A stretch of DNA of 64,000 bases. Origin: a virus. The notes under the pieces are model-generated. The model saw nothing but the letters and a program-made list of their open reading frames with translations. It made no database searches and was not told the origin of the DNA. The translations under genes and the position numbers were made by a program. The stretch lies in the IMG/VR virus record IMGVR_UViG_3300037042_006844, positions 122,556 to 186,555 of that record. One strand, written 5' to 3'. Of the stretch, positions 44,331 to 64,000 are shown in pieces. Every line of letters begins with the position of its first letter. Positions within the stretch are counted from its first letter, which is position 1.

Positions 44331-44394
44331 AATTTATGACGAACGTGTCATAAAAAAACAAAGTTACATTGAATTAATACTAATATAATAGAAT

Positions 44395-44721
44395 ATGAAA
44401 AAGATACTTCTAACAGTTGCAACCCTCTCTCTTCTTTTGACCGCTAGTGCGGTTGATACCAAGGAACTCTACGATTCACAATGCTCCAAGTGTCATGGAA
44501 CAAATGGCAATGGTGTGACCAAGATGGGTCAAAAGCTCAATGCGAAGGATTGGACCGATGTCAAGATTCAAGCCGCAATGACCGAGACCAACATGGTCAA
44601 GGCAATTAAGGTGGGCATTAAAGATGCCGAGGACAAGACTCGCATGAAGGCATATTCAGATATGACTGATGCCGATGTGACGAATTTGGTTACGTATATC
44701 AAAACCTTCAAAAAGCAATAA
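44395..44721 (+). CDS. small secreted c-type cytochrome
   Basis: Signal peptide and a single CSKCH haem-binding motif (CxxCH). Confidence 0.65.
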   Translation: MKKILLTVATLSLLLTASAVDTKELYDSQCSKCHGTNGNGVTKMGQKLNAKDWTDVKIQAAMTETNMVKAIKVGIKDAEDKTRMKAYSDMTDADVTNLVTYIKTFKKQ

Positions 44722-44739
44722 CATCGTATATAACATCGT

Positions 44740-45069
44740 ATGAAGAAATCATTGATGCTCGGGGTTTTGATTCTCAGCGGAATGTTGTGTCAAGCACAAA
44801 ACGCTGGAACCAACGAATTGTATAACAGCAAGTGCAGCAAGTGCCATGCAAAAGATGGCTCGGGCAACACACTGATGGGCAAAAAGTATAGTGCGAAAAA
44901 CTATACAGATGCAGCCGTCCAAAACAAGCTTACTGATGAAGCTTTTGATAAGTCCCTCAAAGAGGGTTACACCGATGCCGAAGGCAAGAAAGTAATGCAG
45001 GCTTTTCCAGAGCTTACGGCACTGGAGCGCAAGGAACTCATCAAAACGATGCGGTCCTTCAAGAAATAA
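44740..45069 (+). CDS. small secreted c-type cytochrome, a paralogue
   Basis: Signal peptide and LYNSKCSKCHAKDG. Paralogous to 44395..44721. Confidence 0.65.
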   Translation: MKKSLMLGVLILSGMLCQAQNAGTNELYNSKCSKCHAKDGSGNTLMGKKYSAKNYTDAAVQNKLTDEAFDKSLKEGYTDAEGKKVMQAFPELTALERKELIKTMRSFKK

Positions 45070-45088
45070 GATTGACATATCAATTTAT

Positions 45089-45161
45089 GCGGAATTAGTG
45101 TCATGAGGAGCACGGCTATCGACCAGATAGCAAGGTTGGTGCAAGTCCAAATTCCGCTCCA
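45089..45161 (+). tRNA. degenerate tRNA-like element with G at position 33, an ACC anticodon loop and a 4-bp T stem; possibly a pseudo-tRNA
   Basis: Acceptor stem GCGGAAT/ATTCCGC plus U and CCA. D arm GTGT…GCAC. Anticodon stem-loop GCTAT-CGACCAG-ATAGC. T arm TTGG-TGCAAGT-CCAA. Confidence 0.3.
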
Positions 45162-45169
45162 CTTTTTCA

Positions 45170-45245
45170 GGGCTCTTAGCTTAATTGGTTAAGCAGCAAA
45201 CTCATAATTTGTTGAGTGGGGGTTCGAGTCCCTCAGGGCCCACCA
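45170..45245 (+). tRNA. tRNA-Met (anticodon CAU)
   Basis: Acceptor stem GGGCTCT/AGGGCCC (with U-G). D arm GCTT-AATTGGTTA-AAGC. Anticodon stem-loop GCAAA-CTCATAA-TTTGT. T arm GGGGG-TTCGAGT-CCCTC. Discriminator A plus CCA. Confidence 0.7.
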
Positions 45246-47681: not shown

Positions 47682-50172
47682 TGTTTATAATTGCAAACGA
47701 GTTGGCATTGTATCGTTGTCCAGATGCGGTTCCAACCCATGTAATTCCTGGAGCATACACAACGCCAAAAGTATCGGCTGCGCAAAACCATGCTGTGAAC
47801 GCAAGAGACCCAACTAAAGTAACTGTCCAACCACCATCAGCACTGACTGTGGCACTGTTTGAAGCATACCAGTGTCCCAACCCTCCAGCAACAATACTAT
47901 AACTTCCCCCAAGTCTCACATTTGCTCCGAACAGTGATGCTATATGCAAACTTCCAGCGGGAACCGTTCCAAACCGAATGCCCGCCCCAGTCGCAACTGT
48001 TGTATATGGTCCTGATGCATAAATACAATGTTGTGTGGTGGATCTTAATTCCATATTTTGGAACACGAATTTTCCGAACACGTTTGCCGCATATATCGAA
48101 TTTTTGCCAGCAGCAGGAGAACCAGAGAGAATGACATTTGCGGGAGTTCCAGAATTTCCATTAAATATTACTCGCCCCGATCCAACAACGTTTGACAGAT
48201 TTACAGTCTGCGCATATGTTCCATCTGCCAATTGAACCGTTACGTCGTATATTCCAGTATCAATTGACGAAACTACATCCATTGCTTTCTGCAAAGTTGC
48301 AAATGGAGCACCGACTGTCAATCCATTGTTTGAATCGTTGCCAGTTGTGCTAACATAATATGTTCTTTCCGCCAGCAACACTGTGCGAGTCGTTGCCGAT
48401 GTTGGTGCTGGAGCATATGATGCTGATACGGCATTTCTAGCCCAACTGCTTGTTATTGGATATGTGCTGCCAGTGCGAAGTGTTGATCCTCCACCCCCAC
48501 CACTGCTTGGTGCCCAACTTGCACTACGAGCTTGTTTTGCATAACTTGCTGTGCCAGCAAACAATGATGCGGACACAACCGTCGCCGATATGTTTCCGGC
48601 CACATCCAATGCATTAACTGGGTTGCTGACTCCTATACCAACTCTACCGTTGGATTGAACAGAGCCAGTTGTTGTGGTGCCAGTATAAATACCCGTTGCG
48701 AACAACACATTTCCAATGCTCACTTGTTCTGGTAGAGTATTTTGAACTCCCTGACCAATCGCAATGCTGTTGCTGTTACCACCAGTTGACGTAAAATCAC
48801 CAATCAGTATTGAAGATTTTCCTATCACTGAGTTATCAACGATATCAGCGTAACCTGCACTATAACCTATGAAAATACTGTTGTTGGCTTTGGGTGCGTT
48901 AACACCACACCAACGACCAATGAAATTGCTGTATGATGCGCTTACTGAGTTCTGTCCAGCAGCAAATCCTATGAAATTGCTGTTATTGGCTTCGGTTGCT
49001 TCAGAGCCAGCACTGACACCTATAAAATTGCTTTCATATGCATTTACAGCCCAGTTGCCCGAACCCATTCCAATAAAATTGCTGCTGTGGGCATTGGTGG
49101 CTTGTGATCCAGCACCCGCTCCAAAAAAATTACTGTTTGTGGCACTGACGGCGTTGATGCCAGCACTATTTCCCATGAAGTTGGAAAACGAGGCTTCAGC
49201 AGCATTGATACCAGCCCAAATTCCAATAAAATTGCTGTTTTCAGCATTTGTTGCTGCTTCGCCAGCTTGTGTTCCAATGAAATTGCTGTTGTTGGCGTTT
49301 GCTGCTTGATTTCCAGCACCGGCACCAACAAAATTGCTATATACCGCATATACTGCTTGATTTCCAGCACCATCTCCAACAAAATTGCTATGGTGGGCAT
49401 ATGATGCGCTGAGTCCAGCTTCATAGCCCAACAAATTGGTATTGGCTGGAGGAGTTTTTGTGTTGACGATATAACCAGTTATCAATACATCCCCTTCAAA
49501 ACTTGCAGATGTGTTGACTTGCAAGCCCCCAGCTGGCGAAATCGAGGCTGATACGCTGCCATTGATAATTCTGGTTGGTTCACCGCTACCACCCGGTGCC
49601 CAGCTTGCACTTCGAGCGTGGTTTGCATAACTGGATGATGATGCGTTTGAACTGATATTGATCAGCATTTTTCCAGCCGTTGTGTGTTGGTATAAACAAT
49701 ATCCAACCACAGTTGGCACTGCGTTTCCATCTGGGGGAGTCAATGAGTATCTACCAGGAGTTGTTCCGCTCAAATACAATAATGACCCAGCCGAATAGCC
49801 CGATGTATTGACATCATTGACTTGACCTTGGGCTGTAACGTATCCTTTGCTTGCACTGAGAATATTTTGAGCAGCTACACCAGCAACGTTGTATTTCTTC
49901 GTAACACCATCACTGATTGCTTTGAAACCGATTGGGTATGTTAGCAAAGACCCCGACAGTGTTATAGCATCACCCGCAGAAATATTTTCGCCAGCATAAA
50001 TTTGCCCAAGGGTCTCTTGACCAATTTTCAACGTCAATCCAGATTGATCGTTGTATACGGCGTATGTGTGGTTATCTTTGTCCCAAAACAGCAACCCTTC
50101 TTGCCATGCAGGTTTTGTTGCATTGGTAGCCGCTTGGATATACGAATTCTGATCTATTTGAAAAATGTGCAT
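47608..50172 (-). CDS. tail fibre or tailspike with a right-handed beta-helix (pectate-lyase-like, putative depolymerase) domain, paralogue 2
   Basis: 854 aa. YVSTTGNDSNNGLTVGAPFATLQKAM is the hallmark N-terminal cap of beta-helix tailspikes. Shares the NFIG repeats and SILIGDFTSTGGNSNSIAIG with paralogue 1. Confidence 0.65.
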   Translation of the reverse strand: MHIFQIDQNSYIQAATNATKPAWQEGLLFWDKDNHTYAVYNDQSGLTLKIGQETLGQIYAGENISAGDAITLSGSLLTYPIGFKAISDGVTKKYNVAGVAAQNILSASKGYVTAQGQVNDVNTSGYSAGSLLYLSGTTPGRYSLTPPDGNAVPTVVGYCLYQHTTAGKMLINISSNASSSSYANHARSASWAPGGSGEPTRIINGSVSASISPAGGLQVNTSASFEGDVLITGYIVNTKTPPANTNLLGYEAGLSASYAHHSNFVGDGAGNQAVYAVYSNFVGAGAGNQAANANNSNFIGTQAGEAATNAENSNFIGIWAGINAAEASFSNFMGNSAGINAVSATNSNFFGAGAGSQATNAHSSNFIGMGSGNWAVNAYESNFIGVSAGSEATEANNSNFIGFAAGQNSVSASYSNFIGRWCGVNAPKANNSIFIGYSAGYADIVDNSVIGKSSILIGDFTSTGGNSNSIAIGQGVQNTLPEQVSIGNVLFATGIYTGTTTTGSVQSNGRVGIGVSNPVNALDVAGNISATVVSASLFAGTASYAKQARSASWAPSSGGGGGSTLRTGSTYPITSSWARNAVSASYAPAPTSATTRTVLLAERTYYVSTTGNDSNNGLTVGAPFATLQKAMDVVSSIDTGIYDVTVQLADGTYAQTVNLSNVVGSGRVIFNGNSGTPANVILSGSPAAGKNSIYAANVFGKFVFQNMELRSTTQHCIYASGPYTTVATGAGIRFGTVPAGSLHIASLFGANVRLGGSYSIVAGGLGHWYASNSATVSADGGWTVTLVGSLAFTAWFCAADTFGVVYAPGITWVGTASGQRYNANSFAIINSGGAGASYFPGSTAGNSFVDGRYY

Positions 50173-51090: not shown

Positions 51091-51200
51091 CTCAGGGGGT
51101 GGTGTTGATTTTTATAGTTGACACCCGCCCATCTATGATCTATGATCCATTTATGCAGAACACAAACAAAAAATTTGACAAAGACCCGATTGGTTCCAGA

Positions 51201-52046
51201 ATGAAATCTTCTTACGAGGATCGGACTAGATATTGTCTGCCTCGTAGAACATACACCATTTTGCGTCTCGATGGCAAATCGTTTCATTTTTACACCCAAG
51301 ACCTCGACAAACCTTTTGATGCGGGTTTTATCGAAGACATGAATCGAGCCGTTGTCAACACGATTCATGAAATTTCACAAGGTGTTGCTTTTGCCTACGC
51401 ACAGTCTGACGAAATTTCAATTCTGCTCACCGATTTTGAGAATGATCAAACAGATGCTTGGTTTGGTGGCAATATTCAAAAAATGAGTAGTGTTGCTGCC
51501 AGCATTATGACTGCTCAATTCAACCGTTTCAGACATATTAGACATTACAACCAAGTTCTTGGGACTTTGAATTTGGCAGACCCAACAATTGCTGCGGATG
51601 TGAATGCAAAAAATCGACTGTCGCCAATTTGGCTGCCGTATTTTGATTGCCGAGCGTTTACCATTCCCGACAGAACCGAAGTTATGAATTATTTTCGGTG
51701 GAGGCAGCAGGATTGCATTCGCAACAGTTTGAGCATGGTCGCACAAAGCATGTTCAGTCACGGCGAATTACAGAATAAAAGCCAAATTGACATGCACGAA
51801 ATGTTGCACCAAAAAGGTGTGAACTGGGCAACCGATTATACCGCTGCCCAGAAGAACGGTAGAATTTTTGTGAAAGAAACCAAACCGACTGAACATATGA
51901 GCAATGTGATAAGTTGGGAGGCTGATATGGCGAACTACAAAGTGGTTCCGGTTCCAACGCACATCGTAAAATGGCAAGCCAATGAAGCTTGGGTCTTTAG
52001 CAAAGACGAAGGCAAACTGCTTGACATGATTCCTAAATATGCATAA
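51201..52046 (+). CDS. Thg1-like protein (tRNA-His guanylyltransferase / 3'-5' polymerase family)
   Basis: TYTILRLDGKSFHFYTQDLDKPFDAGFIEDMNRAVVNTIHEISQGVAFAYAQSDEISILL aligns with the Thg1 core (RVDGRAFHKFS…KPND…DIVLAYGQSDEYSF). Start placed at MKSSYED, by analogy with the Thg1 N-terminus; the track ORF starts at 51099. Confidence 0.7.
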   Translation: MKSSYEDRTRYCLPRRTYTILRLDGKSFHFYTQDLDKPFDAGFIEDMNRAVVNTIHEISQGVAFAYAQSDEISILLTDFENDQTDAWFGGNIQKMSSVAASIMTAQFNRFRHIRHYNQVLGTLNLADPTIAADVNAKNRLSPIWLPYFDCRAFTIPDRTEVMNYFRWRQQDCIRNSLSMVAQSMFSHGELQNKSQIDMHEMLHQKGVNWATDYTAAQKNGRIFVKETKPTEHMSNVISWEADMANYKVVPVPTHIVKWQANEAWVFSKDEGKLLDMIPKYA

Positions 52047-52446
52047 CAGTGACCATCACAAAATCAACAGACGGACGATCACAAAATGCCGAGTCTACGA
52101 CGAAAAATATCGTTGTTGGGACACATCTCCATTGATGATTTATCCGGGGGAGCCAATCGTCAAACAAGGAAGAATCATTCAATGGTGGACGGGATTGATT
52201 GATATTAACAAGAAGGAGATTTACGAAGGCGACATCGTTCGTAAATTGATGTCGCGGTCGCTGTGGGATGTTCCAGAATATGATCGCGGAGTGATTACGT
52301 GGGTAAGGGAATCATTTTGCATTAACCAGAAAAACATTGGCAGCACAAACATATCGGAATACGTTTCCTGTGATTGTTGCTCTACTGATTTGAATGTGAT
52401 CGGAAACATTTTCGATAACCCAGAACTACTATTGGACACCGTATGA
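52039..52446 (+). CDS. YopX-like protein
   Basis: C-terminal …VIGNIFDNPELL is typical of YopX-family proteins. Confidence 0.45.
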   Translation: MHNSDHHKINRRTITKCRVYDEKYRCWDTSPLMIYPGEPIVKQGRIIQWWTGLIDINKKEIYEGDIVRKLMSRSLWDVPEYDRGVITWVRESFCINQKNIGSTNISEYVSCDCCSTDLNVIGNIFDNPELLLDTV

Positions 52447-52643
52447 ACGATAAAAAGCGAACACATCATTATTTGAAATTGGAACTCTCCAAAGAGTTGA
52501 GTGAGAACGATATCGATTACATCCAACATATGTTGGAGCGAGTATTGCATGATTCATTCATCGACCGCACGGAACACCAACTCGGAAAAAAGTTTGAAAT
52601 TAAACTAACAAAAATAACATATACATCCAGCACGGGAATCTAA
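52443..52643 (+). CDS. hypothetical protein
   Basis: 66-aa ORF with ATGA overlap. Confidence 0.35.
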   Translation: MNDKKRTHHYLKLELSKELSENDIDYIQHMLERVLHDSFIDRTEHQLGKKFEIKLTKITYTSSTGI

Positions 52644-52648
52644 AAAAT

Positions 52649-53212
52649 ATGGCTATACAAATACCATCACCAAAAGACCGCAATCTGATGTTCGCCGCGA
52701 ACGTCAATAATACCAGCATTGCTGAACTAACCAAAGCATTGATAGATATCAGCAACGACGACATTTATATCGGAAAGCTCTATGCCCTTCATGGACTGGC
52801 ATACACACCACAACCCATCAAAATTCACATCGATAGTTATGGCGGTCAAGTATATCAATGCCTTGGACTATTGAGCATAATGAAAAATTGCGCAACGCCG
52901 ATTCACACAATCGTTACTGGCTGCGCCATGAGTTGTGGATTTATGATCAGTATCAGTGGCCACAAACGGTTTGGACACAAACACTCCACGTTTATGTATC
53001 ATCAAATCAGCAGTCTCCAAGGCGGCAAACTCAAAGATTTGGAGGAAGATATTATTGAGGCAAAACGGTTGCAGCACATCATTGAACAGCACACGATGGA
53101 GCAAACCAAAATTTCTCAGATCAGACTGACCGAGAGCTATGAAAAGAAAGAAGATTGGTATATGAATGCCAAACAAGCACTCAAATTGGGAGTGATTGAC
53201 GACATTCTATGA
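52649..53212 (+). CDS. clpP: ClpP-family serine protease
   Basis: IHIDSYGGQV and the catalytic-Ser context GCAMSCGFMI, followed by MYHQ containing the catalytic His. Confidence 0.75.
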   Translation: MAIQIPSPKDRNLMFAANVNNTSIAELTKALIDISNDDIYIGKLYALHGLAYTPQPIKIHIDSYGGQVYQCLGLLSIMKNCATPIHTIVTGCAMSCGFMISISGHKRFGHKHSTFMYHQISSLQGGKLKDLEEDIIEAKRLQHIIEQHTMEQTKISQIRLTESYEKKEDWYMNAKQALKLGVIDDIL

Positions 53213-53374
53213 GACGGGAGCTACGCAAAGATATGTTTAATTGGTTGACATTGGAGTTTGGTCTTGAAAGAATACTATTAATAGTGATTACATCTTGCTT
53301 CGTTTTCGTTCCTTTGGGGATTTGGAAAATGATAGAGATCATAATCTGGCTATGGCACCACCACAACATTCACC

Positions 53375-53620
53375 TCACCGTCGGCTAAACACAGATGACC
53401 AAGCATTATTGCTACCTACATAATACTTACCATTAATTTTGTTCACTATTTTGTATATTCCGCTTATTTTCCCAGTATCGTCGCATGGATTTTTCGTTAA
53501 GCAGTTGTTTGTGTTTTTGATAATATCGTTTGCCTCTGTTGCGTTGTTGTTCAAGCAACTCTTCTCTGGTTCTATTGAGTTTTTTTCTTCCCATAATATT
53601 TTTTCGTTTGTTGTTGACAT
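53375..53620 (-). pseudogene. N-terminal GIY-YIG nuclease fragment, a homing-endonuclease remnant
   Basis: GIYKIVNKINGKYYVGS is the GIY-YIG motif. The ORF stops after about 80 aa with no downstream domain. Confidence 0.35.
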
Positions 53621-53680
53621 AGTGTGATGTAGCCTCTATACTATAAGTAGAATGTTGGAGAATAAAACGTCAAAGAATTT

Positions 53681-53926
53681 ATGTCTTGGTTTGTATATTT
53701 AGTGATAACTTCAAAAAACACATTGTATTGCGGTTATACTATCAACATTGAGAAACGTGTTGCCACGCACAATGCTGGTCGTGGTGCTAAATACACACAA
53801 AAGCGATTGCCTGTGAAACTGGTTTATTCAGAAGAATTCGCAACTAAAACCGAAGCGATGCAACGTGAATATGCCATTAAACAGATGAGTCGCAGTGAAA
53901 AATTGAAATTGATAAAAAACACATGA
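53681..53926 (+). CDS. small GIY-YIG nuclease-superfamily protein (YhbQ/UPF0213-like)
   Basis: WFVYLVITSKNTLYCGYTINIEKRVATHNAGRGAKYT…REYAIKQMSRSEKLKLI parallels E. coli YhbQ. Confidence 0.6.
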   Translation: MSWFVYLVITSKNTLYCGYTINIEKRVATHNAGRGAKYTQKRLPVKLVYSEEFATKTEAMQREYAIKQMSRSEKLKLIKNT

Positions 53927-54282
53927 ACCGATTTTTGTGCAGATGTAAAAATCTGGCAACGTGGCAATATATGCCATCTTCGAGCAATCCAGATTACGAC
54001 TATTTTTGCGAGCTTTGCGTTCCCCGTGGATGCAGTTGCAACAACCATCACATTGAGGATGGTGATAACATTGCCGAGGGAGATGTTTTTGAGCATCCAG
54101 AAGAAGATGGAAGCTGGAAATGGCTGATCGAAAATGTTGAATGGTGCTACATAGATTCACAAGGTAGAGAACTGCCTTGCATCGAATTCTGGCATGAACC
54201 GGAAGGGTTCGATGCCAATGAAGAAACCATCGAACATTACAAAAAGCACAATATCAAATACTTCACAACAGACGAAGAATAA
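53923..54282 (+). CDS. hypothetical Cys-rich protein
   Basis: 119-aa ORF. Confidence 0.4.
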   Translation: MNRFLCRCKNLATWQYMPSSSNPDYDYFCELCVPRGCSCNNHHIEDGDNIAEGDVFEHPEEDGSWKWLIENVEWCYIDSQGRELPCIEFWHEPEGFDANEETIEHYKKHNIKYFTTDEE

Positions 54283-54288
54283 TAATCT

Positions 54289-54894
54289 ATGCATACATCA
54301 ACACAAAAATTGATTAGATGGAGTGAGGAATTGGGAGTTGATCAACTAGCCAAAGTTGTGCTGGAATCTCCCAGATTCGACATTTGGAGTGGTAGCAGCA
54401 AACCAACGCAGCATCACTATGGCAAACATGGTTTGACCATTCATACACACGAAGTGGTCAACCTTTGTATGGAAATTCCACATACATTATGCGTTCAAGT
54501 CAACACAATCGAACTGTTTTTGTCTGCGGTGTTTCACGATTGCGGTAAAATGTTTGATTATAAACCAGCACGGGGAGATTTTGCTGGATCTATTGATTAC
54601 AATAATTGGGTCGGAACTGATCACAAACGGCTGATTCATCATGTTAGTCGATCAGCATTGATTTGGCAGACTGCATGGGACAATGCTGTATCAAACAACA
54701 TTTGTGACCGAGACCCAGAATTGGTGGATCGTGTATTGCACAACATATTGTCGCATCATGGTCAGCGTCAGTGGGGTAGTCCAGTGATGCCAAAAACCAA
54801 AGAAGCATGGCTTTTGCATTTGTGTGACGGCATCAGTGCTCGTATGAACGATGCCGATAAATGGGATTTTGTTGCAGATACACCGAAACTATAG
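54289..54894 (+). CDS. HD-domain phosphohydrolase
   Basis: His at IHTHE, HD motif at LSAVFHDCGK, downstream His and Asp at LSHHG and HLCD. Confidence 0.6.
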   Translation: MHTSTQKLIRWSEELGVDQLAKVVLESPRFDIWSGSSKPTQHHYGKHGLTIHTHEVVNLCMEIPHTLCVQVNTIELFLSAVFHDCGKMFDYKPARGDFAGSIDYNNWVGTDHKRLIHHVSRSALIWQTAWDNAVSNNICDRDPELVDRVLHNILSHHGQRQWGSPVMPKTKEAWLLHLCDGISARMNDADKWDFVADTPKL

Positions 54895-54917
54895 AATGTT
54901 TTGCCATATTTATAATC

Positions 54918-56084
54918 ATGGCAAATACAAACTATACTGATTTACTCTTCAAAGACAATTTTATTTCTTGGATCAACGCTATCGCTTCAAACGATAGCGA
55001 TGCAACCATTAAAACGGCTGCAAAAGAAATTTCCACCAACGTATCCACAGACACAGCGGTTGCTCCAAAACCATACTACAATGCGCTGTATAACAAATAT
55101 CAATTCAAAATTCTATCGACCAAAATAAATGGGGCGATTGGATCAGCACTGTATTCGTTCGTTGGGCAAAAACAAAAGCTGATCGGCACAATTCAAAAAA
55201 ATCCCGTTGTCAAAACGGTGACTCCTCCAACCCCAGTTCCTCCCGCACCCACTCCCACACCAGAAACAGTCTATACGTTTGGTGTGTTAGGCGACAGTGG
55301 TATGAGCGGGTTGTTGGAATACACAGAAGCAGTGGCTACACAAATTCAAAGCTACAATCCACAATGGGTTGTTCATGTTGGGGATTGCAATTACAGCAGC
55401 CCGGGATTGTTGTGGAACAATTTTTTGCAATATTGGCAACACGATTCTTTCTACGCCAGACACATGTATATAGCGTTTGGTAATCACGATCTGGATGTCG
55501 ATTACGGAGGGGCGATATTGACTGCTTTAGAATACACCACTGCTGCCGCGATTGGTCCTGAGAAACAAGATACGCATCTTCTGTGCTATGATTTTGTGCG
55601 TGGACCCGTTCATTTTTTCGTATTTAACACAGGCAACACAGCTTCTGGCGATCAAATGGATGAAGAAATTGACCCAAACATTCAACTGCAAGCTCAGATT
55701 GATGAACTTGAGCCATTGATGTTGGCATCCACATCTCCTTGGAAAGTGGTTGTGTGTCATAAACCTCCCTATACAAGTGAACAGGTGCATAGAGAGGGCG
55801 CAGCACCCATGCGCCTCGACTATGCTGCACTGGGAATTGATATAGTTCTCAGCGGTCACAGCCACGACTACGAGGTATACACCAACGGAGGCATTCAATA
55901 TTTTGTTCAAGGTTTGGGCGGAGCATCAAGACGTTGCGTGACCGAACCATTGGTTGAAGGTTATGTTACGGATTTCTGCCAAAATTGGGGTTATTCAATC
56001 TGTAATGTTACTTCAAAACACTTCACAATTGCCACGTTCGACATTGCTGGATACACCATCGACGTTCGCTCGTTCAGCAAATAA
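54918..56084 (+). CDS. calcineurin-like metallophosphoesterase (purple-acid-phosphatase-like)
   Basis: VHVGDCNY, FGNHDLD and GHSHDYE motifs. Likely start at MANTNYT; track ORF 54861..56084. Confidence 0.65.
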   Translation: MANTNYTDLLFKDNFISWINAIASNDSDATIKTAAKEISTNVSTDTAVAPKPYYNALYNKYQFKILSTKINGAIGSALYSFVGQKQKLIGTIQKNPVVKTVTPPTPVPPAPTPTPETVYTFGVLGDSGMSGLLEYTEAVATQIQSYNPQWVVHVGDCNYSSPGLLWNNFLQYWQHDSFYARHMYIAFGNHDLDVDYGGAILTALEYTTAAAIGPEKQDTHLLCYDFVRGPVHFFVFNTGNTASGDQMDEEIDPNIQLQAQIDELEPLMLASTSPWKVVVCHKPPYTSEQVHREGAAPMRLDYAALGIDIVLSGHSHDYEVYTNGGIQYFVQGLGGASRRCVTEPLVEGYVTDFCQNWGYSICNVTSKHFTIATFDIAGYTIDVRSFSK

Positions 56085-56104
56085 CACCAATATAACAAAC
56101 GAAA

Positions 56105-56148
56105 AACCGTCAGACGTATATGCACATCTGACGGTTTTGTTTTTTTAG
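56105..56148. terminator. bidirectional terminator
   Basis: AAAACCGTCAGA…TCTGACGGTTTTGTTTTTTT. Confidence 0.6.
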
Positions 56149-56160
56149 GGTTTGTGTTCT

Positions 56161-56376
56161 CTACTTAAACGGAACAGTCCATTTAGGTTTGTTGTTGGCA
56201 TCTTTGTTTGCGTCTGCCACTTTGTTGATAAACTGATCAACTTTTTGTTGACGCTGCGTTGCACGCCGATCCGCAATCTTTTTTGCTTCTTCGGCTTGCG
56301 CAACTGTCATACTTGGATTATTGGTGATGAGACCGCCAATTGGTTTGAGACTTACGATTCCTCCTGCTACGAACAT
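56161..56376 (-). CDS. hypothetical protein
   Basis: 71-aa ORF. Confidence 0.35.
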   Translation of the reverse strand: MFVAGGIVSLKPIGGLITNNPSMTVAQAEEAKKIADRRATQRQQKVDQFINKVADANKDANNKPKWTVPFK

Positions 56377-56414
56377 AATAGTGTATTCCTTTCGTTATAT
56401 ACTAATAAATAGTC

Positions 56415-56630
56415 TTATGGAATGTTTGCCAGTGCATTTTTTGCAATATTGTGGTTTGCATCCATTTGCTGTTCAATTTTAGAATACAGCCGGTCCCTAT
56501 AATATCCGCTACGATAGTGTTCCAAATTGAAAACCCGCATATCTTCATCACACATACATCGCATGTGAATATAGCTATATGTTATTTTGGTGGGCGTATT
56601 ACAGCACACACATCGAATGTCATTGTTCAT
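56415..56630 (-). CDS. hypothetical Cys-rich protein
   Basis: 71-aa ORF with CVCC…CMCDED. Confidence 0.35.
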   Translation of the reverse strand: MNNDIRCVCCNTPTKITYSYIHMRCMCDEDMRVFNLEHYRSGYYRDRLYSKIEQQMDANHNIAKNALANIP

Positions 56631-56719
56631 GTATATCTAAAATATCACACACTTATCAAAAAACAAGGGTTGTCACAATAATGTAACAACCCTTGTTGCG
56701 ATAATTTGTATGGATATTC

Positions 56720-57676
56720 CTATTTAATATCACCAATCCAATGAACCGTTACCATGTCGGTTGCATCATCATGGATACCATAATAATTGCAATGACTTAC
56801 ATCCAAGCAAAGGTTTTGTGTATAGCTTTTGGCAGTGGGCCTGCCATTATACAACCATACTGGTTTTCTTTGCGGCGTATGCCCAAAAACTTGGTTAATT
56901 CCCATAATTGGTCTGAACTCGCTAGAATCGCACCAAATGATTCCACCGAAAGGATGGTCGCCACCACGGCTATATCCAGCACACAGAATTTCCTCTCGCA
57001 CACCACCTCCAAATGCTACTTTCAATGCTTTGTCGCAAGTTGATCGTAACTGCTCTTTAAGGTCGAATTCCCGACGATAGAAATGCTCATGGAATCCAGC
57101 ATGAGTGCAAAGCCAACTGCCAACCCAAGTATGCAATGGTAGCTTTTCCCAATCGTTTTCAGTCATGATGGCATTAATAGCAAACTCTTTTGCTTGTTCA
57201 TAGCCACTGCATTTGTATGCACGGTGTGGCACGGCATAATGAATGTCGTGGTTGCCCATCAGATGAATTCGATTTGGTTGCTTCAGAGAATTCACCAACC
57301 AATCTGCGGTTTCGGCAGCATCGGCGGGGGTATCACCGAAGTCATCAAAATAGTCACCGAGAAAGACAACTGCATCAGCAGCCTCATGCTTGATTATTTT
57401 GTCAGCTTTTTCCCATTTCAAGTGAATATCTGGGATAATTAATGTTCGTTTACTCATCTTATAATGATAACACGGAACTTCCACGATGTCAACATCTGGC
57501 TCAGTATTTTTTGGCTTTTTTGGGCGACCCCAATCAATGCCGTCGTAGTTTTTGTTATACTGACTTTTCTTCACTGGACGGGGTTTGTCCCCCTTGCCCG
57601 CTTGTTTGTTGCTCATAAAGTTGCTGGTATCCGTCTTCAATGGCTGTAAAAAACTGTCCTTTGCGATACATTTCAA
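56720..57676 (-). CDS. Ser/Thr-phosphatase-like metallophosphoesterase (lambda PPase family)
   Basis: LIIPDIHLKW, VFLGDYFD and MGNHDIHY motifs. Possible true starts at MSNKQ (about 57616) or MSKRTL (about 57456). The track ORF overlaps 57555..57950. Confidence 0.6.
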   Translation of the reverse strand: MKCIAKDSFLQPLKTDTSNFMSNKQAGKGDKPRPVKKSQYNKNYDGIDWGRPKKPKNTEPDVDIVEVPCYHYKMSKRTLIIPDIHLKWEKADKIIKHEAADAVVFLGDYFDDFGDTPADAAETADWLVNSLKQPNRIHLMGNHDIHYAVPHRAYKCSGYEQAKEFAINAIMTENDWEKLPLHTWVGSWLCTHAGFHEHFYRREFDLKEQLRSTCDKALKVAFGGGVREEILCAGYSRGGDHPFGGIIWCDSSEFRPIMGINQVFGHTPQRKPVWLYNGRPTAKSYTQNLCLDVSHCNYYGIHDDATDMVTVHWIGDIK

Positions 57677-57950
57677 AAGCTATTGCCGTATCGCTTTTGA
57701 GAAATTTCGGGTCGTTCGGAGGCCTGATCCAGAATCCTCCGTCAGCTTCCTTTTCATATACCACAAAAATGACATTGAATAGTCGTTCTTCCAATGCATC
57801 ATATAGTTCTTTGATAGGATTGTCAATATAGAAAATGTCTTTTTCGCTCCAGTGTCCATCTATGCGAGGACACACGCACATTCTATACTCACCTTCGATC
57901 AATACTTTGAATACAAAGGCATTCGGTTTTTTATTATTATTTTCGCTCAT
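57555..57950 (-). CDS. hypothetical protein
   Basis: 131-aa ORF. Confidence 0.45.
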   Translation of the reverse strand: MSENNNKKPNAFVFKVLIEGEYRMCVCPRIDGHWSEKDIFYIDNPIKELYDALEERLFNVIFVVYEKEADGGFWIRPPNDPKFLKSDTAIAFEMYRKGQFFTAIEDGYQQLYEQQTSGQGGQTPSSEEKSV

Positions 57951-57959
57951 ATATTGTTA

Positions 57960-60659
57960 TCAATCTTCATCCCAAATTTTGATTTTGCTCCAGCTAGAGT
58001 CCTTGAAATAAATATCGGGTTCACCAAAATGATCCAGTGCTGCTTGCACAACATTACCACTGCCCCAATAGTTTCCAGTTATGAATCCTTCTGGACGAAT
58101 TTTTGGCAGCCATTGGGCAAGCAAACGCCAGTTATACTGATAGCTTTTGTATTCATTGAGATAAATCAGATCGATACTCCCTGGTTCAAACCGATCAGCA
58201 GCTTCCATTGCATCAACATCTTCAATGACTTTGACGCACGGATATGATGCTGTGCGCAGATTAAAATTGTGCCGCACATCATCCAACGCAATGCTTTTTG
58301 GCCAGCTATCATCAATTTTATCAAATTGATCTACGACCCACAGTTCTTCTGGTTGTAGATACTTTGCGAGCAACGATGTGGCTTCGCCTTGATAACAGTT
58401 GATTTCGACGATGCGTTTGATTTTGAAATTGCGCTCGGTTTGATTTTTGTTGACGTAATTACAGAAATCGATGAACCCTGTGAGATATATTTTGGCTGGG
58501 TTATCCAACATGCTCAAAAATTTGATATCACTATCGGTGGCAAAAAACTGCTCTTGAACACCTATGCCAATGCGGCTGTTTTGAATCATGCGCAATTTGT
58601 TTTTATTGCTTTGCATTCGCTTTTTGTTGATCCGCTTGACCCAACTACCATCTTCAAAATGGGCATCGATATTGCTCACCGTATCGGTGATAGTTTTGAC
58701 CACACTGTCGCTACCCCATTCTCCGCCACCAATCACGCCGCCATCGCGTAATTTGGGCAGATACAAATCCAACAACTGCTTGATCATGCTGGCTGAGTTA
58801 TTGGTTCCGATGTAAATGAAATCCAAACTGCCGTCCGCAAACTGTTTTGCCGCACCCACGATATCTGTGTCGTAGTGTCTAATACATGGATACTGCTTGG
58901 AACGCAGAAAAAAGTTGTGCTTTACATCATCCCATTTATGTTTGAAAATAGTTTCGTCGTCGTTAACAACGTCACCGCTGATGCGGCTTTCAAACGACTC
59001 GACTGCATGTAAACTCGTTGGATTGAATTTATGCGCAAAAATAGTGGTCAATTCTCCTTGGAAACTATTGAGTTCCAATATATTTTTGACTGGGGTTTTG
59101 CTGCTAACATAGTCGCACAAATCCAAGGCACCTTGAAGCGGGGCAGGCACAAAATATGGTGTGTCGAGAATGAAATCAATGCTTTGCTGGCTTACATAAA
59201 ATTGGTTGCTCACGCCTTGATCTGTTGCGGGAACTCCCAGACGAAACTTTTTAACTGACGTAATCAGTGGTATTGTTGCCATATGTTTTGTATAATAATC
59301 TGTATTATTAGATTCTGTTGGTTCTGTTAATTTTGTTGATCTTATTCTGGCTGAGTGAGTGATCCAAGTTGAATCTGAAAAGAAAACATCGGGTTCTCCA
59401 ATAGTCTCTAAACATGCATTGACCACCTCACCATTACCCCAACCAATCCCGGCAATAATGCCATTCTTTTTAAGTTTTGGTAATGCCCGTGCGATAAGCG
59501 ATTTCAAATAATCTTTATTGCTGTGCTCGTTGATGTAAACCAAATCAATACTATCATCCGCAAACAGGTCTGTCAACACAGTTTCGGGACTAAATTTGAG
59601 GGGCTTGACGCACGGATACGGTTTGATTCTGAATTTGAAATTCGATTCGACCTTTTGCATGTCCAAAGCCGACTGGGAAATTTTCGGCTGTTTGTCGAAC
59701 TTTTCAACGGCATACAAACTGGTTGGAGCTAGATATTTTGCAAACAGTTCAGTGGTCTCACCTTGATAGCAATTGATCTCCACAACGGTGTCCAGTTTTT
59801 GACCTTTTAGATGGTCAAAAAAACTTAAAATTGCTTTGGTTTGATCGGTCTGGTCGTTTTCCAACAACCAAGCAATATCATCGTCGCAAGCAGTAAACGA
59901 CTTGGATATGCTTACTCCCAATCGGGTATTTGGAAGAACATACAGACCCGCATTGCGTTTGATACGAGGCGTTACTTTTACCAACCAACTACTATCATCA
60001 AAATGTATATCGACATCGCCAAACGCTTCAATGATGGCTTTGGTCACTCCACCCTTGCCGAGATCGTGACCGCCCATGTAACCACCCAATTTAATTTTTG
60101 GTAGATATGTGTTGATGTCTCGTATCACGCCTTCATAAGTATGATCTCCGTCAATATACACAAAATCCAAACTGTTGTCCGCAAACATATCAACAGTGTC
60201 ATAGCTGAATTTTTTGATATGTCTGACACATTCAAACGGCTCGGTTCGTAATTTGAAATTGTAGCTGACATCGTCAAAATTTGCAAATGAGCTATCATCG
60301 TTCGCATCATATCCATTCACAAACGGATCGATGGCATACAAATCTTTTGGATTGAACTGCATTGCGAATAAACTGGTGCTTTCACCTTGATAGCTTCCGA
60401 TCTCCACCATTCGTTCAACGGTAGTATCATTTTTTACATGATCAATACATGCAAGAAGTCCACGCAGCCAGTTATTTTGAAATAACTCGTCGTGATTCAA
60501 GATATACTCAATGTTTTCCTTGGTGGCAAAAAATTGCCTACCACCGAGACCGGTGCCCAATCGCATACAAGGCAATGTTGTGCGTAACAATGAGTTATCC
60601 ATAACGTATTTTTTTAGTCTTTCAAGTATTGCAAATTTTTGGTGAAACACTGAAAGCAT
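57960..60659 (-). CDS. 899-aa protein made of four tandem TylF/CmcI-type methyltransferase-like domains
   Basis: Four repeats of about 200 aa, each with a G(S/E)(Y/F)QGE…(L/I)D(F/L)(V/I)Y(I/L)…G-rich…D(S/G)(S/T)W block. Only one domain keeps the catalytic DGDH signature (LDFVYIDGDH); the others read INEHS, IGTNNS and LNEYKS. Confidence 0.7.
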   Translation of the reverse strand: MLSVFHQKFAILERLKKYVMDNSLLRTTLPCMRLGTGLGGRQFFATKENIEYILNHDELFQNNWLRGLLACIDHVKNDTTVERMVEIGSYQGESTSLFAMQFNPKDLYAIDPFVNGYDANDDSSFANFDDVSYNFKLRTEPFECVRHIKKFSYDTVDMFADNSLDFVYIDGDHTYEGVIRDINTYLPKIKLGGYMGGHDLGKGGVTKAIIEAFGDVDIHFDDSSWLVKVTPRIKRNAGLYVLPNTRLGVSISKSFTACDDDIAWLLENDQTDQTKAILSFFDHLKGQKLDTVVEINCYQGETTELFAKYLAPTSLYAVEKFDKQPKISQSALDMQKVESNFKFRIKPYPCVKPLKFSPETVLTDLFADDSIDLVYINEHSNKDYLKSLIARALPKLKKNGIIAGIGWGNGEVVNACLETIGEPDVFFSDSTWITHSARIRSTKLTEPTESNNTDYYTKHMATIPLITSVKKFRLGVPATDQGVSNQFYVSQQSIDFILDTPYFVPAPLQGALDLCDYVSSKTPVKNILELNSFQGELTTIFAHKFNPTSLHAVESFESRISGDVVNDDETIFKHKWDDVKHNFFLRSKQYPCIRHYDTDIVGAAKQFADGSLDFIYIGTNNSASMIKQLLDLYLPKLRDGGVIGGGEWGSDSVVKTITDTVSNIDAHFEDGSWVKRINKKRMQSNKNKLRMIQNSRIGIGVQEQFFATDSDIKFLSMLDNPAKIYLTGFIDFCNYVNKNQTERNFKIKRIVEINCYQGEATSLLAKYLQPEELWVVDQFDKIDDSWPKSIALDDVRHNFNLRTASYPCVKVIEDVDAMEAADRFEPGSIDLIYLNEYKSYQYNWRLLAQWLPKIRPEGFITGNYWGSGNVVQAALDHFGEPDIYFKDSSWSKIKIWDED

Positions 60660-60848
60660 AATTGCCCAGCACCTTCCACATAATGGTTGCGAAACTCAAT
60701 GTGCAATGCTTTTGGAACACTCGTTTTTTTATTGCATAGAATGCAACGTTCAAACTGAGAGTCTTTTTCAGACTCGACGGGAACATTGCCAGCAATGATG
60801 GCTTTCTGTGGAACATTATTATTCATGTATTTGACCTATAACTATTTG

Positions 60849-62160
60849 CTATGAACTACCCACCTGCTAAAGCAGGTGGGTTTCCACCGCAATAGTTATG
60901 AGTTTCTATCGGGTAGTTCCTACCCGTATTAAACGTTGTCTTTGGAAATGAGAAGTCCAAGATATTCTTGGCAGCATTCACATCTCTATCGTGTTTCTCA
61001 TTACAATCTGGGCAAGTCCATTCTCTATCATTTAATGTAAGAGAATGATTAACATATCCACAATGAGAACACGTCTTACTGGATGGTTCAAATCTACCTA
61101 TTTTTAGGAAGTTCTTACCATACCAGTCGCTTTTATATTGGAGCATATTTACAAATTTTCCCCAAGCATAATCTCCTATGAGTTTATTAGTTGGTGAATA
61201 GTTGTTCTTCTGCATCCCCCGAATGGTTAAATCCTCAATACAGATATTACCAATTTGGTTATCATTGGTTAGTTTGTATGAGAGTTTATCCAAGAAATCT
61301 TTGCGTTGTCTTGTTATTTTAGAATGGAGTTTGGTTATCTGCTCTTGCTTGGAGATATGAGCAGTAGAACCTTTAGTGAGTTGCTCCAAATCCTGTTGGT
61401 GTTTAGTAAGTTTATCAGCAGATTGTTTCAATACCTTCGGGTTCTCAATCTTTGTTCCATCATTCAGAGTAAGAAATGTTTTTACTCCAAAATCTATTCC
61501 TATTGCTTTATCCTTTTTTGGTGTTGGTTTCTTTGATAGTTCTTTTTCAACCTCTACAAGAATGGAAACATAGTATCGTTTATCTCTGTCTTGGGATACG
61601 ATTGCTTGTTTAATCGTTCCTTCTGCTTGTCGGTCAAAGATACATTTAATGCCTCCACGAAACTTTGGAATGACTAATCGCTTTCCATCATAGTTCAACT
61701 TAATGTTGTTATTAGTCATTGGGACAACGAACGATTTACGAGCATACTTCTTCGACTTAAACTTTGGAAATCCAGCATTGGAACGAAAGAAGGAAGTATA
61801 TGCTCTATCCAAGTTGAGGATGGATTGCTGTAGCGATTGAGAACCTATCTCACTCAACCATTCATTTGTCTTTTTCAACTTTGGAAGTTCAGTTGCCATA
61901 TCCTGCCAGTTCAATGTTTTCTTGGTTTCTTTGTAATGCTTAATCTTTACTTCAAGGAAATGGTTGTATATCCATCGGCAGTGTCCAAAATGCTTGGACA
62001 AAAGAACCTCTTGTTCCTTGGTAGGATATATTCTGTATTTGTAAGCAACGTTATACATTCTACAACATACATATCATTCACTTTCTAAAAACGATTAATT
62101 ATTTTTCAATGGGTCGCATTCATCCCATATGGGGTTTCTGCTCCCTCAAAGATAAATATA
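60849..62160 (-). mobile_element. IS200/IS605-family element carrying only tnpB (IS-2)
   Basis: TnpB 60856..62058. Perfect TAAA-loop hairpin CCCACCTGC-TAAA-GCAGGTGGG at 60859-80, which encodes the TnpB C-terminus. Hairpin CCCATATGGGG plus TTTCTGCTCCC beyond the start (62108-62160). Boundaries are approximate. Confidence 0.45.
60856..62058 (-). CDS. tnpB: TnpB (OrfB_IS605 type, with a zinc ribbon)
   Basis: YKYRIYPTKEQ N-terminus, DFGVKTF (RuvC I), CIEDL (RuvC II), CSHCG…CPDCN zinc finger and DRDVNAAKNI (RuvC III). Confidence 0.8.
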   Translation of the reverse strand: MYNVAYKYRIYPTKEQEVLLSKHFGHCRWIYNHFLEVKIKHYKETKKTLNWQDMATELPKLKKTNEWLSEIGSQSLQQSILNLDRAYTSFFRSNAGFPKFKSKKYARKSFVVPMTNNNIKLNYDGKRLVIPKFRGGIKCIFDRQAEGTIKQAIVSQDRDKRYYVSILVEVEKELSKKPTPKKDKAIGIDFGVKTFLTLNDGTKIENPKVLKQSADKLTKHQQDLEQLTKGSTAHISKQEQITKLHSKITRQRKDFLDKLSYKLTNDNQIGNICIEDLTIRGMQKNNYSPTNKLIGDYAWGKFVNMLQYKSDWYGKNFLKIGRFEPSSKTCSHCGYVNHSLTLNDREWTCPDCNEKHDRDVNAAKNILDFSFPKTTFNTGRNYPIETHNYCGGNPPALAGG

Positions 62161-62164
62161 GTGG

Positions 62165-62554
62165 TTACTTCCAAACTACTTGCAACACCACTATTAGAAC
62201 ACTAAGTCCAATCAATGTCAAGGTTTTTGGAGTAAGCTGCTCGTTAAAATAAAACGTGGTTAGTATAGTAAACATTAACATTCCAATACTGAACGTAAAT
62301 ATCCTATTAGGCCAGATTTTGCCGTCGAAATGCTCGCTGATCAGTTTAACGCTGTAAATTGATAATAATGTATTGGGCATCGACAATAACAACATTGGAT
62401 ACTGGTATCGTTTGAATGCTTCGTGCAAAAACTGCCCATATAGTTGGTGCCAGCCAACTACATATACGATTACCAATAAACATAGTCCGTAAAACAGTTT
62501 CATCGGTTGGAGTTCATTGTTACAATGAACCCGGGGGTATTGAGTCCAACCCAA
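62165..62554 (-). CDS. hypothetical membrane protein
   Basis: 129-aa ORF with about 4 TM helices. Confidence 0.45.
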   Translation of the reverse strand: MGWTQYPRVHCNNELQPMKLFYGLCLLVIVYVVGWHQLYGQFLHEAFKRYQYPMLLLSMPNTLLSIYSVKLISEHFDGKIWPNRIFTFSIGMLMFTILTTFYFNEQLTPKTLTLIGLSVLIVVLQVVWK

Positions 62555-62760
62555 GCATCTTGTTGGTTATAATGGTGGAATTCCATAGCCTCATTCTCGG
62601 TCATGCCATCGTCCATAAGCTTTTGCAGCACTTTGTCGGTATCATATACAACATATTCGCCGCTACCACTACGGGATCCAATACCAGCGATACAGTCGTC
62701 GTATCCATCCATTGTGATGAGTTCGTTCGTTTCAATATACTCCTGTAAACTTGTTTTCAT
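62500..62760 (-). CDS. hypothetical protein
   Basis: 86-aa ORF. Confidence 0.3.
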   Translation of the reverse strand: MKTSLQEYIETNELITMDGYDDCIAGIGSRSGSGEYVVYDTDKVLQKLMDDGMTENEAMEFHHYNQQDAWVGLNTPGFIVTMNSNR

Positions 62761-63305
62761 TTGGGGCTTAGATATCCGTGCTTAATGTAGTGAATAATGT
62801 TTTCTCGTCCAACCGGGTCCATGCTGTGAACCAAAAACGATGGATGTGCTACGCCCTCTTTTCTGCATTCTTCGCACAAAAATCTGGCGCAGTCATAACC
62901 AGTTTTTTCGTCAGTGATCGGACCATCATAATGATGATCATTCTCCTCCAGAATGTGGTCGTAACAAACGAACTCAGGAATTCCTTTGCTGCGAATAACA
63001 TCGCAAAATGCATCGTAGTTTCTCACAATTGTCCATTCAGTTGGAATGGTTGGGAGTGTAACCCAATAAACCCAATCAGGCATTCGGATATCGTCAAGAA
63101 AAAGATAGTATGGTTGCATAGAGTTTTCTTCCAGATGTAGAGTATACATCACTTCTCCATCGTTGTAAAGACAATCGTTGGTTCTCTCGACCTTTTTGAC
63201 CACGATCCCATTTCTGCCATAATGGGCAATAATTTCGTCCAACTGTTCGGCAGTTTTGACTTTATGTAGCTGAATTGAATTGTTGTTGATAATATCTCGC
63301 ATCAT
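62757..63305 (-). CDS. hypothetical protein
   Basis: 182-aa ORF. Confidence 0.45.
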   Translation of the reverse strand: MMRDIINNNSIQLHKVKTAEQLDEIIAHYGRNGIVVKKVERTNDCLYNDGEVMYTLHLEENSMQPYYLFLDDIRMPDWVYWVTLPTIPTEWTIVRNYDAFCDVIRSKGIPEFVCYDHILEENDHHYDGPITDEKTGYDCARFLCEECRKEGVAHPSFLVHSMDPVGRENIIHYIKHGYLSPK

Positions 63306-63343
63306 TTAGATACTTATATGTAGTTGAGTTGCGTTATAAATAA

Positions 63344-64000
63344 TGAAAATCGGAATAATAACAATGGCAGCGGGAAGAGTTTACAGAGAATATGCTCAAC
63401 GACTTTTGGATTCTCTGCATTTATTTCTACCAATTCACGAACGAACAGTTATCATTCTTGGCGACGATACCACCAATCATTCCAGTCTGGCAATACGAAC
63501 GCTGTATATTCCACCGTTGCCAAAACCACTGAACACTTTACTGCGATTTCATTATATAAAACAATGCGATCTGTCGGAGTTTGATTTGATTTATTATATA
63601 GATGCCGACTGTGAAGTGGTCGTTCCAATAGGAGACGAAATTTTTCCAGATAAACAGGGGCAATTGTGTGTGGTAAAACACCCTTGGGCAGATAAATGTG
63701 GTTACGGTTTGGGACCGGATGATTTTTACGAAAGAAATCCTCTATCGCAAGCCGCAACGTCCGATCCTCGTAACGGTATTTACTACCAAGGGTGTTTTTT
63801 TGGCGGGTATCGTGATGATTTTCTGACTATGGTAGAATTGTTGGATAAAAATGTCAAGCTGGATTTGAACAACCGAATCATTGCCAAATGGCATGACGAG
63901 TCCCACATGAACAAATATTTCATCGACAATCCACCAAAAGAATTGTCGCCATCATATGCTTATCCTGGGTGCGATTCGTATCGTGGTATATTTCCAGCCT
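63344..64000 (+). CDS. glycosyltransferase family 6 (ABO/alpha-1,3-Gal-transferase-like), 3'-truncated by the window edge
   Basis: A frame stays open from ATG at about 63344 to the window end (absent from the track for lack of a stop). DxD motif at YYIDADCE. GCFFGGY…AKWHDESHMNKYF matches the GT6 signature (human ABO: LGGFFGG…AVWHDESHLNKYL). Confidence 0.65.

Follow-up and report, generated by a model that had tools for sequence, protein, structure and literature searches.

A GT6-family glycosyltransferase gene with a predicted B-type donor motif, no GT11 partner nearby, and a short C-terminus in an uncultured jumbo phage

What would a phage do with a glycosyltransferase of family GT6? The question is raised by a gene that runs off the end of the window analyzed here, a 64,000-nucleotide stretch of viral DNA. 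Enzymes of this family build the sugars of the human A and B blood groups, and the A, B, and alpha-Gal epitopes shape antibody barriers among vertebrates. One proposal traces the vertebrate genes to DXD-type GT6 of prokaryotes and phages, which would have been both their ancestors and their vectors (PMC3516806). Phage GT6 genes were described earlier from cyanophage P-SSM2 and from marine metagenomes (PMC3516806, PMC3961637), and GT6 and GT11 “auxiliary metabolic genes” were reported from soil viromes in 2025 (PMC12016548). We found a GT6 homologue in 71 GenBank phage records, mostly those of Synechococcus and Prochlorococcus phages, and an environmental Megaviridae sequence of the family in BFVD. 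DXD-type GT6 is also now common in bacterial MAGs. Because GT6 has been known in phages since P-SSM2, the gene in the window is no surprise, and it opens no new question, since phage GT6 genes and their likely role in surface glycans have both been published. What is new is modest: a jumbo-phage carrier without a close cultured relative, a predicted B-type donor motif, the loss of a GT11 partner, and a tail that lacks the C-terminal lid.

The GT6 gene occupies positions 63343 to 64000 on the plus strand. An earlier note on this DNA had described an open frame running to the end of the window. That frame exists, but its start had been placed one base late, at 63344, where translation runs into stop codons; the ATG lies at 63343 to 63345. 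Counting from this ATG, 219 sense codons reach position 63999, and codon 220 contributes just its first base, at 64000. The full-length protein, P0001, was recovered by searching 5.8 billion proteins; it contains 231 amino acids, is 100% identical over all 219 residues encoded in the window, and is recorded on a JGI contig of 303,564 bp. The rest of the gene past the window consists of 12 codons, beginning with Y220, and a TAG stop at an equivalent coordinate of about 64038. These 12 residues, YIKHWNNAWDDK, are followed by the stop codon in P0001 and likewise in L007, a locus from the 164-kb ENA contig ERZ27313431 k141_609505. The DNA of L007 is 98 to 99% identical to window positions 51812 to 64000 and was used as a proxy for the sequence downstream; the gene ends GAT AAA TAG in L007. 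In the list of open reading frames for the region, no ORF longer than 101 amino acids competes with the GT6 frame on either strand. Comparison of the gene with a diverged, 90% identical homologue (L096) gave a dN/dS of 0.18 at a dS of 0.31, which indicates that it is under purifying selection.

Assignment to GT6, as claimed in the earlier note, is upheld by the Pfam score, the fold match of a structural model, and the aligned DXD motif and catalytic Glu, and we consider it secure. The window frame matched PF03414 (Glyco_transf_6) with 69 bits against a cutoff of 25 (E = 3.5e-19). The complete gene, which the note had wanted for annotation with dbCAN, became available as P0001 and also passed the Pfam GT6 model, taken here as a proxy for dbCAN (69.6 bits, with the gathering score at 25; E = 2.6e-19). 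PF03414 is carried by every homologue found (60/60), and PHROG 3317, “glycosyltransferase,” matched the window protein with an E value of 1.2e-39. When all PDB chains were searched with phmmer, BoGT6a was matched with an E value of about 5e-19, bovine alpha3GalT with ∼1e-15, and human ABO with ∼5e-15; GT6 enzymes made up all of the at least 60 PDB sequence matches listed for the protein. P0001 scored 146 bits against NCBIfam NF041524, “family 6 glucosyltransferase,” under the curated cutoff of 250; it is related to this subfamily but lies beyond its curated bounds. An AlphaFold2 model of P0001, built on an alignment of 59 homologues, had a pLDDT of 92.1 and a pTM of 0.91. A Foldseek search of the PDB with this model placed BoGT6a (4cjc) first, with a TM score of 0.85 and an rmsd of 2.6 Å, and gave TM scores of 0.78 to 0.83 with alpha3GalT, GTA, and GTB. 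The earlier description of the motifs as nearly identical to the GT6 signature holds for the WHDESHxNKYF block, in which 11 of 13 positions agree with alpha3GalT, but not for the protein as a whole, which is 24 to 29% identical to solved GT6 enzymes.

Three clades of GT6 have been described: minimal DXD enzymes of prokaryotes and phages (clade 1), which include P-SSM2, marine metagenome homologues, and PaGT6 of Parachlamydia; the vertebrate enzymes (clade 2); and metal-independent bacterial NXN enzymes with a membrane-binding tail (clade 3) (PMC3516806, PMC3961637). P0001 has the features of clade 1, with DXD at the subdomain junction, a length of 231 amino acids, a single domain, and no BHB membrane domain. 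It departs from clade 3 in having DAD rather than NAN and in lacking a C-terminal extension. Its sequence thus fits clade 1, the “minimal catalytic domain with DXD” type. An exhaustive HMMER search yielded about 2,000 representative sequences of GT6 clusters, and for 1,061 the E value was 1e-10 or lower.

Residue equivalences were drawn from multiple alignments and PDB alignments, with numbering checked against known residues. Multiple alignments were used instead of the pairwise phmmer alignment to alpha3GalT, which misplaces the DXD motif and the C-terminus. The string YYIDADCE, previously singled out for its DxD, was confirmed at residues 84 to 91 (63592 to 63615). Within it, D87-A88-D89 (63601 to 63609, plus strand) is the predicted Mn2+/Mg2+-UDP site (role per PMC3961637) and aligns with D225-V-D227 of alpha3GalT, N95-A-N97 of BoGT6a, and D-V-D of P-SSM2. 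Two further strings quoted in the earlier note, GCFFGGY and AKWHDESHMNKYF, were located at residues 150 to 156 and 181 to 193. The second of these contains the block W183-H-D-E186-S (63889 to 63903, plus strand), in which W183 would stack against the acceptor and E186 (codon 63898 to 63900) would be the catalytic Glu by homology (PMC3516806). Their equivalents are W314 and E317 in alpha3GalT and W189 and E192 in BoGT6a, and in 1vzt_A, E186 aligns with index 238, the position of E317. The catalytic Glu (alpha3GalT E317, GTA E303, BoGT6a E192) has been reported to be conserved in all GT6. In the 59-sequence alignment, D185, E186, S187, and Y147, the equivalent of BoGT6a Y153, are invariant, and W183 is nearly so (at least 90%).

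The putative acceptor site H113-P-W115 (63679 to 63687, plus strand; roles per PMC3516806) corresponds to Q247-A-W249 of alpha3GalT and H122-P-G124 of BoGT6a. H113 matches BoGT6a H122 and the His of GTA and GTB, a position occupied by Gln in alpha3GalT, while W115 matches alpha3GalT W249. The DXD-type prokaryotic enzyme PaGT6 requires Mg2+ or Mn2+, whereas NXN types do not (PMC3516806, PMC3961637), and BoGT6a is metal independent because it has NXN in place of DXD. By homology, we infer that the window enzyme is metal dependent and performs retaining alpha-1,3 chemistry.

The carrier is a phage, as the earlier note had supposed. The window contains rIIA and rIIB, large tail-spike-like ORFs at 45249 to 50172, a homologue of RNA ligase/tail-fibre attachment proteins, an ATP-dependent DNA ligase, a Thg1-like enzyme, five tRNA genes, and many PHROG matches, and the identical GT6 protein lies on the 303-kb contig. 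NAMPT, a PRPP-synthetase-like gene, and ClpP are also present, and an Rfam scan of the window returned tRNAs only. Megablast of 8 kb retrieved no near-identical GenBank phage. The rIIA protein is only about 26% identical to those of T4-like phages, and a concatenate of five proteins yielded a DNA-ligase match alone, with Caulobacter and other jumbo phages, at no more than 37% identity. Since these markers are just 26 to 37% identical to those of cultured phages, we conclude that the window derives from an uncultured jumbo phage to which no cultured phage is closely related. Members of the 90% cluster of the window GT6 occur on 17 contigs, and the best GT6 match in 185k species genomes is 39 to 40% identical, in Dependentiae and Phycisphaerae. 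Genes in the window start without Shine-Dalgarno motifs, which gives a weak hint of the host.

Starting from an intact GT6 gene that is under purifying selection in a phage and has the fold and motifs of its family, we lean toward the reading that it encodes a functional, soluble, single-domain enzyme with a GT-A fold. This would be a retaining alpha-1,3-galactosyltransferase that depends on a metal and, in the infected cell, caps a host-envelope glycan ending in galactose. The enzyme would be made inside a cell infected by this uncultured phage of ∼300 kb. It would bind the UDP-sugar via a divalent metal held by D87 and D89, with UDP-galactose as the donor, to judge from the triad Q149-G-C. 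E186 would aid transfer of the sugar to the 3-OH of galactose with retention of the alpha configuration. The target would be LPS, capsule, or glycolipid intermediates at the cytoplasmic face, and capping would alter the surface of infected cells. Both the acceptor and the biological pay-off, an altered surface or receptor, are speculative, and the functions suggested in the earlier note, modification of host LPS or capsule to mask receptors or of structural glycans of the phage, are likewise guesses.

The donor prediction derives from Q149-G150-C151 (63787 to 63795, plus strand), which aligns with codons 266 to 268 of human ABO, H280-A-A of alpha3GalT, and A155-G-G of BoGT6a. Whether a GT6 enzyme uses Gal or GalNAc depends mainly on the codon 266 to 268 motif. 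In the human A-transferase backbone, QGC conferred B (Gal) activity scored as +++++, the maximum, with A activity absent (PMC5377540 Table 2), and QGC also occurs in bacterial “B genes” (PMC5377540). This suggests that the window enzyme is a “B-transferase-like” alpha-1,3-galactosyltransferase with UDP-Gal as its predicted donor, by extension from the human backbone. Such an extension leaves room for a GalNAc (A-type) or other hexose transferase, given that one motif acted differently in a bacterial enzyme than in the human backbone (PMC5377540) and that both characterized prokaryotic enzymes, BoGT6a and PaGT6, use UDP-GalNAc (PMC3516806). The NCBI name “family 6 glucosyltransferase” likewise points to another hexose. 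However, GalNAc users have Gly in the third position of the triad (AGG, LGG, or CGG), where the window enzyme has the bulkier Cys, and it was precisely QGC that abolished A activity. A donor other than UDP-Gal is unlikely in our estimation, though a candidate to be kept in mind.

Gene neighborhoods bear on the acceptor. A GT11 HMM was built and scanned over all fetched GT6 loci, and a GT11 gene was found within the GT6 flank in 47 of 91. It is directly adjacent to GT6 in five of the six IMG/VR viral loci, as well as in L011 to L013 and L095, and follows GT6 immediately in the closest relatives P0002 (55% identity), P0006, and P0007. P0003 belongs to a tandem pair of GT6 genes that is followed by a Caps_synth-like glycosyltransferase. 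GT6 and GT11 are the only genes that the neighborhoods of the closest homologues have in common with known phage loci. The adjacency of GT6 and GT11 in relatives is what would be expected if the acceptor were of the H type (Fuc-alpha1,2-Gal), as it is for ABO, BoGT6a, and PaGT6. The predicted acceptor pocket of the window enzyme is a mosaic, with H113 as in fucose-accepting enzymes, W115 as in alpha3GalT, F128 in place of a conserved Thr (BoGT6a T134), and H223 at “A7.”

A search for GT11, GT2, and GT25 homologues found none in the 64-kb window or in the next 10 kb as read in L007, a total of 74 kb around the gene. The window GT6 stands alone, on the strand opposite to its neighbors. It is divergent from a cREC_REC gene (start 63305, minus strand), from which it is separated by a 37-bp spacer (63306 to 63342), and it converges on thyA (thymidylate synthase), from which it is 3 bp away in L007, with DHFR beyond. 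The position beside thyA is kept in L007, L008, L096, and L097. A four-domain Methyltransf_24 protein is encoded at 57960 to 60659, 2.7 kb upstream of GT6, and a GT1-family enzyme (Glycos_transf_1) and an RmlD-like reductase are found 5 to 7 kb downstream in L007. A membrane ORF at 62165 to 62554 on the minus strand was considered as a GtrA/flippase-like partner and rejected, as it had no Pfam match even at an E value of 10. The window gene shows that a GT6 can stand by itself, need not belong to a glycan cluster, and need not carry the C-terminal lid.

This isolation among non-glycan genes, with no GT11 partner, would also suit an enzyme whose target is the phage itself, whether capsid, tail, or fibre proteins or a virion-associated glycan. 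The tail-spike-like ORFs in the same window are in line with such a role, and a lidless C-terminus could leave the site open to a bulky acceptor. The spacer before the gene holds the octamer TATAAATA, which we take to be the consensus of T4 late promoters, and which occurs in the window 11 times versus 2.6 expected. At 63335 to 63342 it abuts the GT6 ATG, and the spacer has no Shine-Dalgarno-like motif. However, a promoter in this position would leave no 5′ leader ahead of the conserved N-terminus. Copies of the octamer, several in number, also lie on the non-coding strand, so TATAAATA is weak evidence for late expression. Scans for sigma-70-like promoters and terminators around the GT6 gene gave nothing above chance. 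All characterized GT6 enzymes, moreover, act on galactoside glycans rather than proteins (PMC3961637, PMC3516806), and relatives of the window gene are located in polysaccharide-type operons. We therefore regard a virion target as doubtful, about on a par with a donor other than UDP-Gal.

The preferred reading, a functional enzyme that caps a host glycan, has to accommodate an unusual C-terminus. A Lys residue corresponding to alpha3GalT K359 and BoGT6a K231 has been stated to be conserved in all GT6, both DXD and NXN, and the K359A substitution in alpha3GalT caused a 350-fold loss of kcat (PMC3961637). In the window protein this column is occupied by N226, and just five more residues follow, with no equivalent of Arg365. 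The last residue of the window protein, K231, is not retained in the 90% identical relative P0062. The register of H223 and N226 was set by a manual “K-N-H” tail alignment of DXD-clade homologues with the C-terminal ends of human GTA and bovine alpha3GalT as we presume them to read; the alpha3GalT fragment in the tool alignments stops at Q357 and mis-registers the last strand by three residues. Because family membership is defined by sequence, the missing Lys marks a GT6 variant and not an exclusion from the family. Given the cost of the K359 mutation, the activity of the window enzyme could be low or organized differently. As a compact (231-amino-acid), soluble candidate alpha-galactosyltransferase, it could bear on whether the “universally conserved” Lys is dispensable.

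A short tail together with HPW or HPL and a Q-x-C triad was observed in about 25 of the ∼200 closest cluster representatives, and some of these 25 belong to intact GT6-GT11 operons. This indicates that the short tail is a lineage trait and not a sign of decay. The absence of a nearby GT11 gene and of the Lys359 and Arg365 equivalents could otherwise suggest a gene that is inactive or in decay, left over from a glycan cluster after the loss of its GT11 partner and its lid. The dN/dS of 0.18 stands against this, as do a frame that is intact in at least four diverged contigs and the retention of all other catalytic residues, and we consider decay very improbable. A bolder possibility, for which we hold out modest hope at best, is a “lidless” GT6 subfamily, marked by HPW or HPL, Q-x-C, and a “KIIHYN” end, together with a jumbo-phage enzyme that is uncoupled from GT11 and acts alone on a host-made or non-canonical acceptor. 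If the tail is truly lidless, the UDP leaving group would be stabilized in a different way. If the enzyme is uncoupled, it might, for example, cap a receptor glycan to block superinfection or decorate virion proteins.

T-even phages pair a ThyA-like hydroxymethylase with DNA glucosyltransferases, and convergence of the window gene on thyA, with DHFR beyond, could be read in this way, with GT6 as the sugar transferase for a hypermodified base. We rejected such a role as the least probable of all, since the adjacent ThyA passes the equivalog models for genuine thymidylate synthase (TIGR03284, 337 bits versus 108; NF002496, above cutoff) and is not a hydroxymethylase, the galactoside-binding residues of GT6 are conserved in the window protein, and the known T4 DNA glucosyltransferases have a GT-B fold and stand outside GT6.

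Among known systems, the GT6 of P-SSM2 (PSSM2_268) resembles the window enzyme in being phage borne, ∼230 amino acids long, and a single domain with no BHB, with DXD and the catalytic Glu. The two are 37.7% identical over 95% of the query. They differ in the triad, which is AGG (GalNAc type) in P-SSM2 and QGC in the window enzyme, and in the C-terminus, where P-SSM2 has a K..H..R tail and the window enzyme, which also has HPW, lacks the Lys and Arg. The P-SSM2 gene lies within a GT2/GT1/GT11/GT6/epimerase/GT25 cluster, whereas the window gene lies alone between cREC_REC and thyA in a jumbo phage that is not cyanophage-like. PaGT6 of Parachlamydia shares the clade 1 DXD type and is metal dependent (PMC3516806).

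BoGT6a (PDB 4AYJ, 4CJC) is the best match in both sequence and structure, at 29% identity, an E value of 6e-19, and the TM score of 0.85 given above. Its H122, Y153, W189, and E192 correspond to H113, Y147, W183, and E186 of the window enzyme. It differs in its AGG triad (UDP-GalNAc), in having G124 and T134 where the window enzyme has W115 and F128, and in its K231/R243 lid, and its clade carries a C-terminal membrane-binding domain that the window enzyme lacks. GTB and bovine GGTA1 share the GT-A fold, DXD, the catalytic Glu in a WHDESHLNKY block, and, with the window enzyme's predicted donor, the use of Gal. In contrast, they are Golgi type II membrane proteins that include a stem region, their triads read MGA or HAA, and they possess a K359/R365 (K346/R352) lid; identity of the window enzyme to mammalian GTB and alpha3GalT is just 24 to 25%. 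The soil-virome GT6/GT11 “auxiliary metabolic genes” likewise place GT6 on contigs of uncultured phages, but there it is paired with GT11 (PMC12016548).

Comparison of the window with L007, a relative locus on a 164-kb ENA contig, revealed that 1,296 bp of the window (60856 to 62151) are missing from L007, which is elsewhere 98 to 99% identical. This stretch holds an IS605-family TnpB ORF (60856 to 62058, minus strand) with OrfB_IS605, Cas12f1-like TNB, and HTH domains. Its absence from a near-identical locus marks the stretch as a recent insertion in this jumbo phage, at a distance of 1.3 kb from GT6. Another TnpB-like transposase ORF (24855 to 26051, minus strand; phrog_506) adjoins the RNA ligase gene. 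Since the two window TnpB ORFs share only 23% identity, the second is an element independent of the first. The window and L007 also differ at 53419 to 53725, where ∼307 bp in the window correspond to ∼24 bp in L007. This stretch is probably a homing-endonuclease remnant; a short GIY-YIG-like ORF lies in it on the minus strand (53375 to 53620), beside a GIY-YIG gene on the plus strand (53681 to 53926).

Two other ORFs near GT6 are kept in both L007 and L096, a diverged relative locus. One encodes an 899-aa protein with four tandem Methyltransf_24 domains (57960 to 60659, minus strand) that gave a faint match to a NanM-like “sugar O-methyltransferase” (33.6 bits, under the cutoff of 44). This protein is a candidate glycan methyltransferase that could act together with GT6. 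The other is a 129-aa ORF (62165 to 62554, minus strand) that is flanked by the TnpB insertion and the cREC_REC gene and appears hydrophobic by eye; a search for family matches to this ORF returned none, even at an E value of 10. The gene immediately upstream of GT6 encodes cREC_REC (cyclic-phosphate processing receiver), and no such gene is found in L096. It is part of an RNA-repair-like set (26080 to 27237, 51099 to 52046, 54289 to 57676, and 62757 to 63305) that also includes an RNA ligase, a Thg1-like tRNA-His guanylyltransferase, an HD protein, and two metallophosphoesterases.

The thymidylate synthase gene that converges on GT6 encodes 374 aa in L007 (10682 to 11806) versus 285 aa in L096 (6735 to 7592), with an insertion of ∼90 aa in the L007 lineage, the one closest to the window. 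In L094, the locus of a 51%-identical relative of the window GT6 protein (P0003), two GT6 genes lie in tandem (583 to 1937), the second of which encodes P0003, and a Caps_synth/Gly_transf_sug-type transferase follows the pair. This tandem arrangement shows that GT6 has been duplicated inside a single glycan operon.

The window contains the NAD salvage genes for NAMPT and a PRPP-synthetase-like protein (40159 to 43403), and a SIR2-family protein is encoded downstream of GT6 in L007 (13996 to 14856). These genes may function in NAD+ reconstitution or counterdefense.

The whole window contains 11 copies of the octamer TATAAATA, the consensus of T4 late promoters, versus 2.6 expected (e.g., 12595 to 12602 and 39861 to 39868). 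One copy (63335 to 63342) directly abuts the GT6 start codon, but several are found on the strand opposite the local genes. Shine-Dalgarno-like motifs were not found upstream of gene starts throughout the window (e.g., 31560, 38551, and 63343), where the upstream regions are A-rich. These gene starts may reflect a host whose translation initiation does not depend on Shine-Dalgarno motifs. The window also carries a cluster of five tRNA genes (43658 to 45245): Lys-TTT, Glu-TTC, two Met-CAT, one of which was not picked up by Rfam, and Ile-TAT, which is unusually long at 94 nt.
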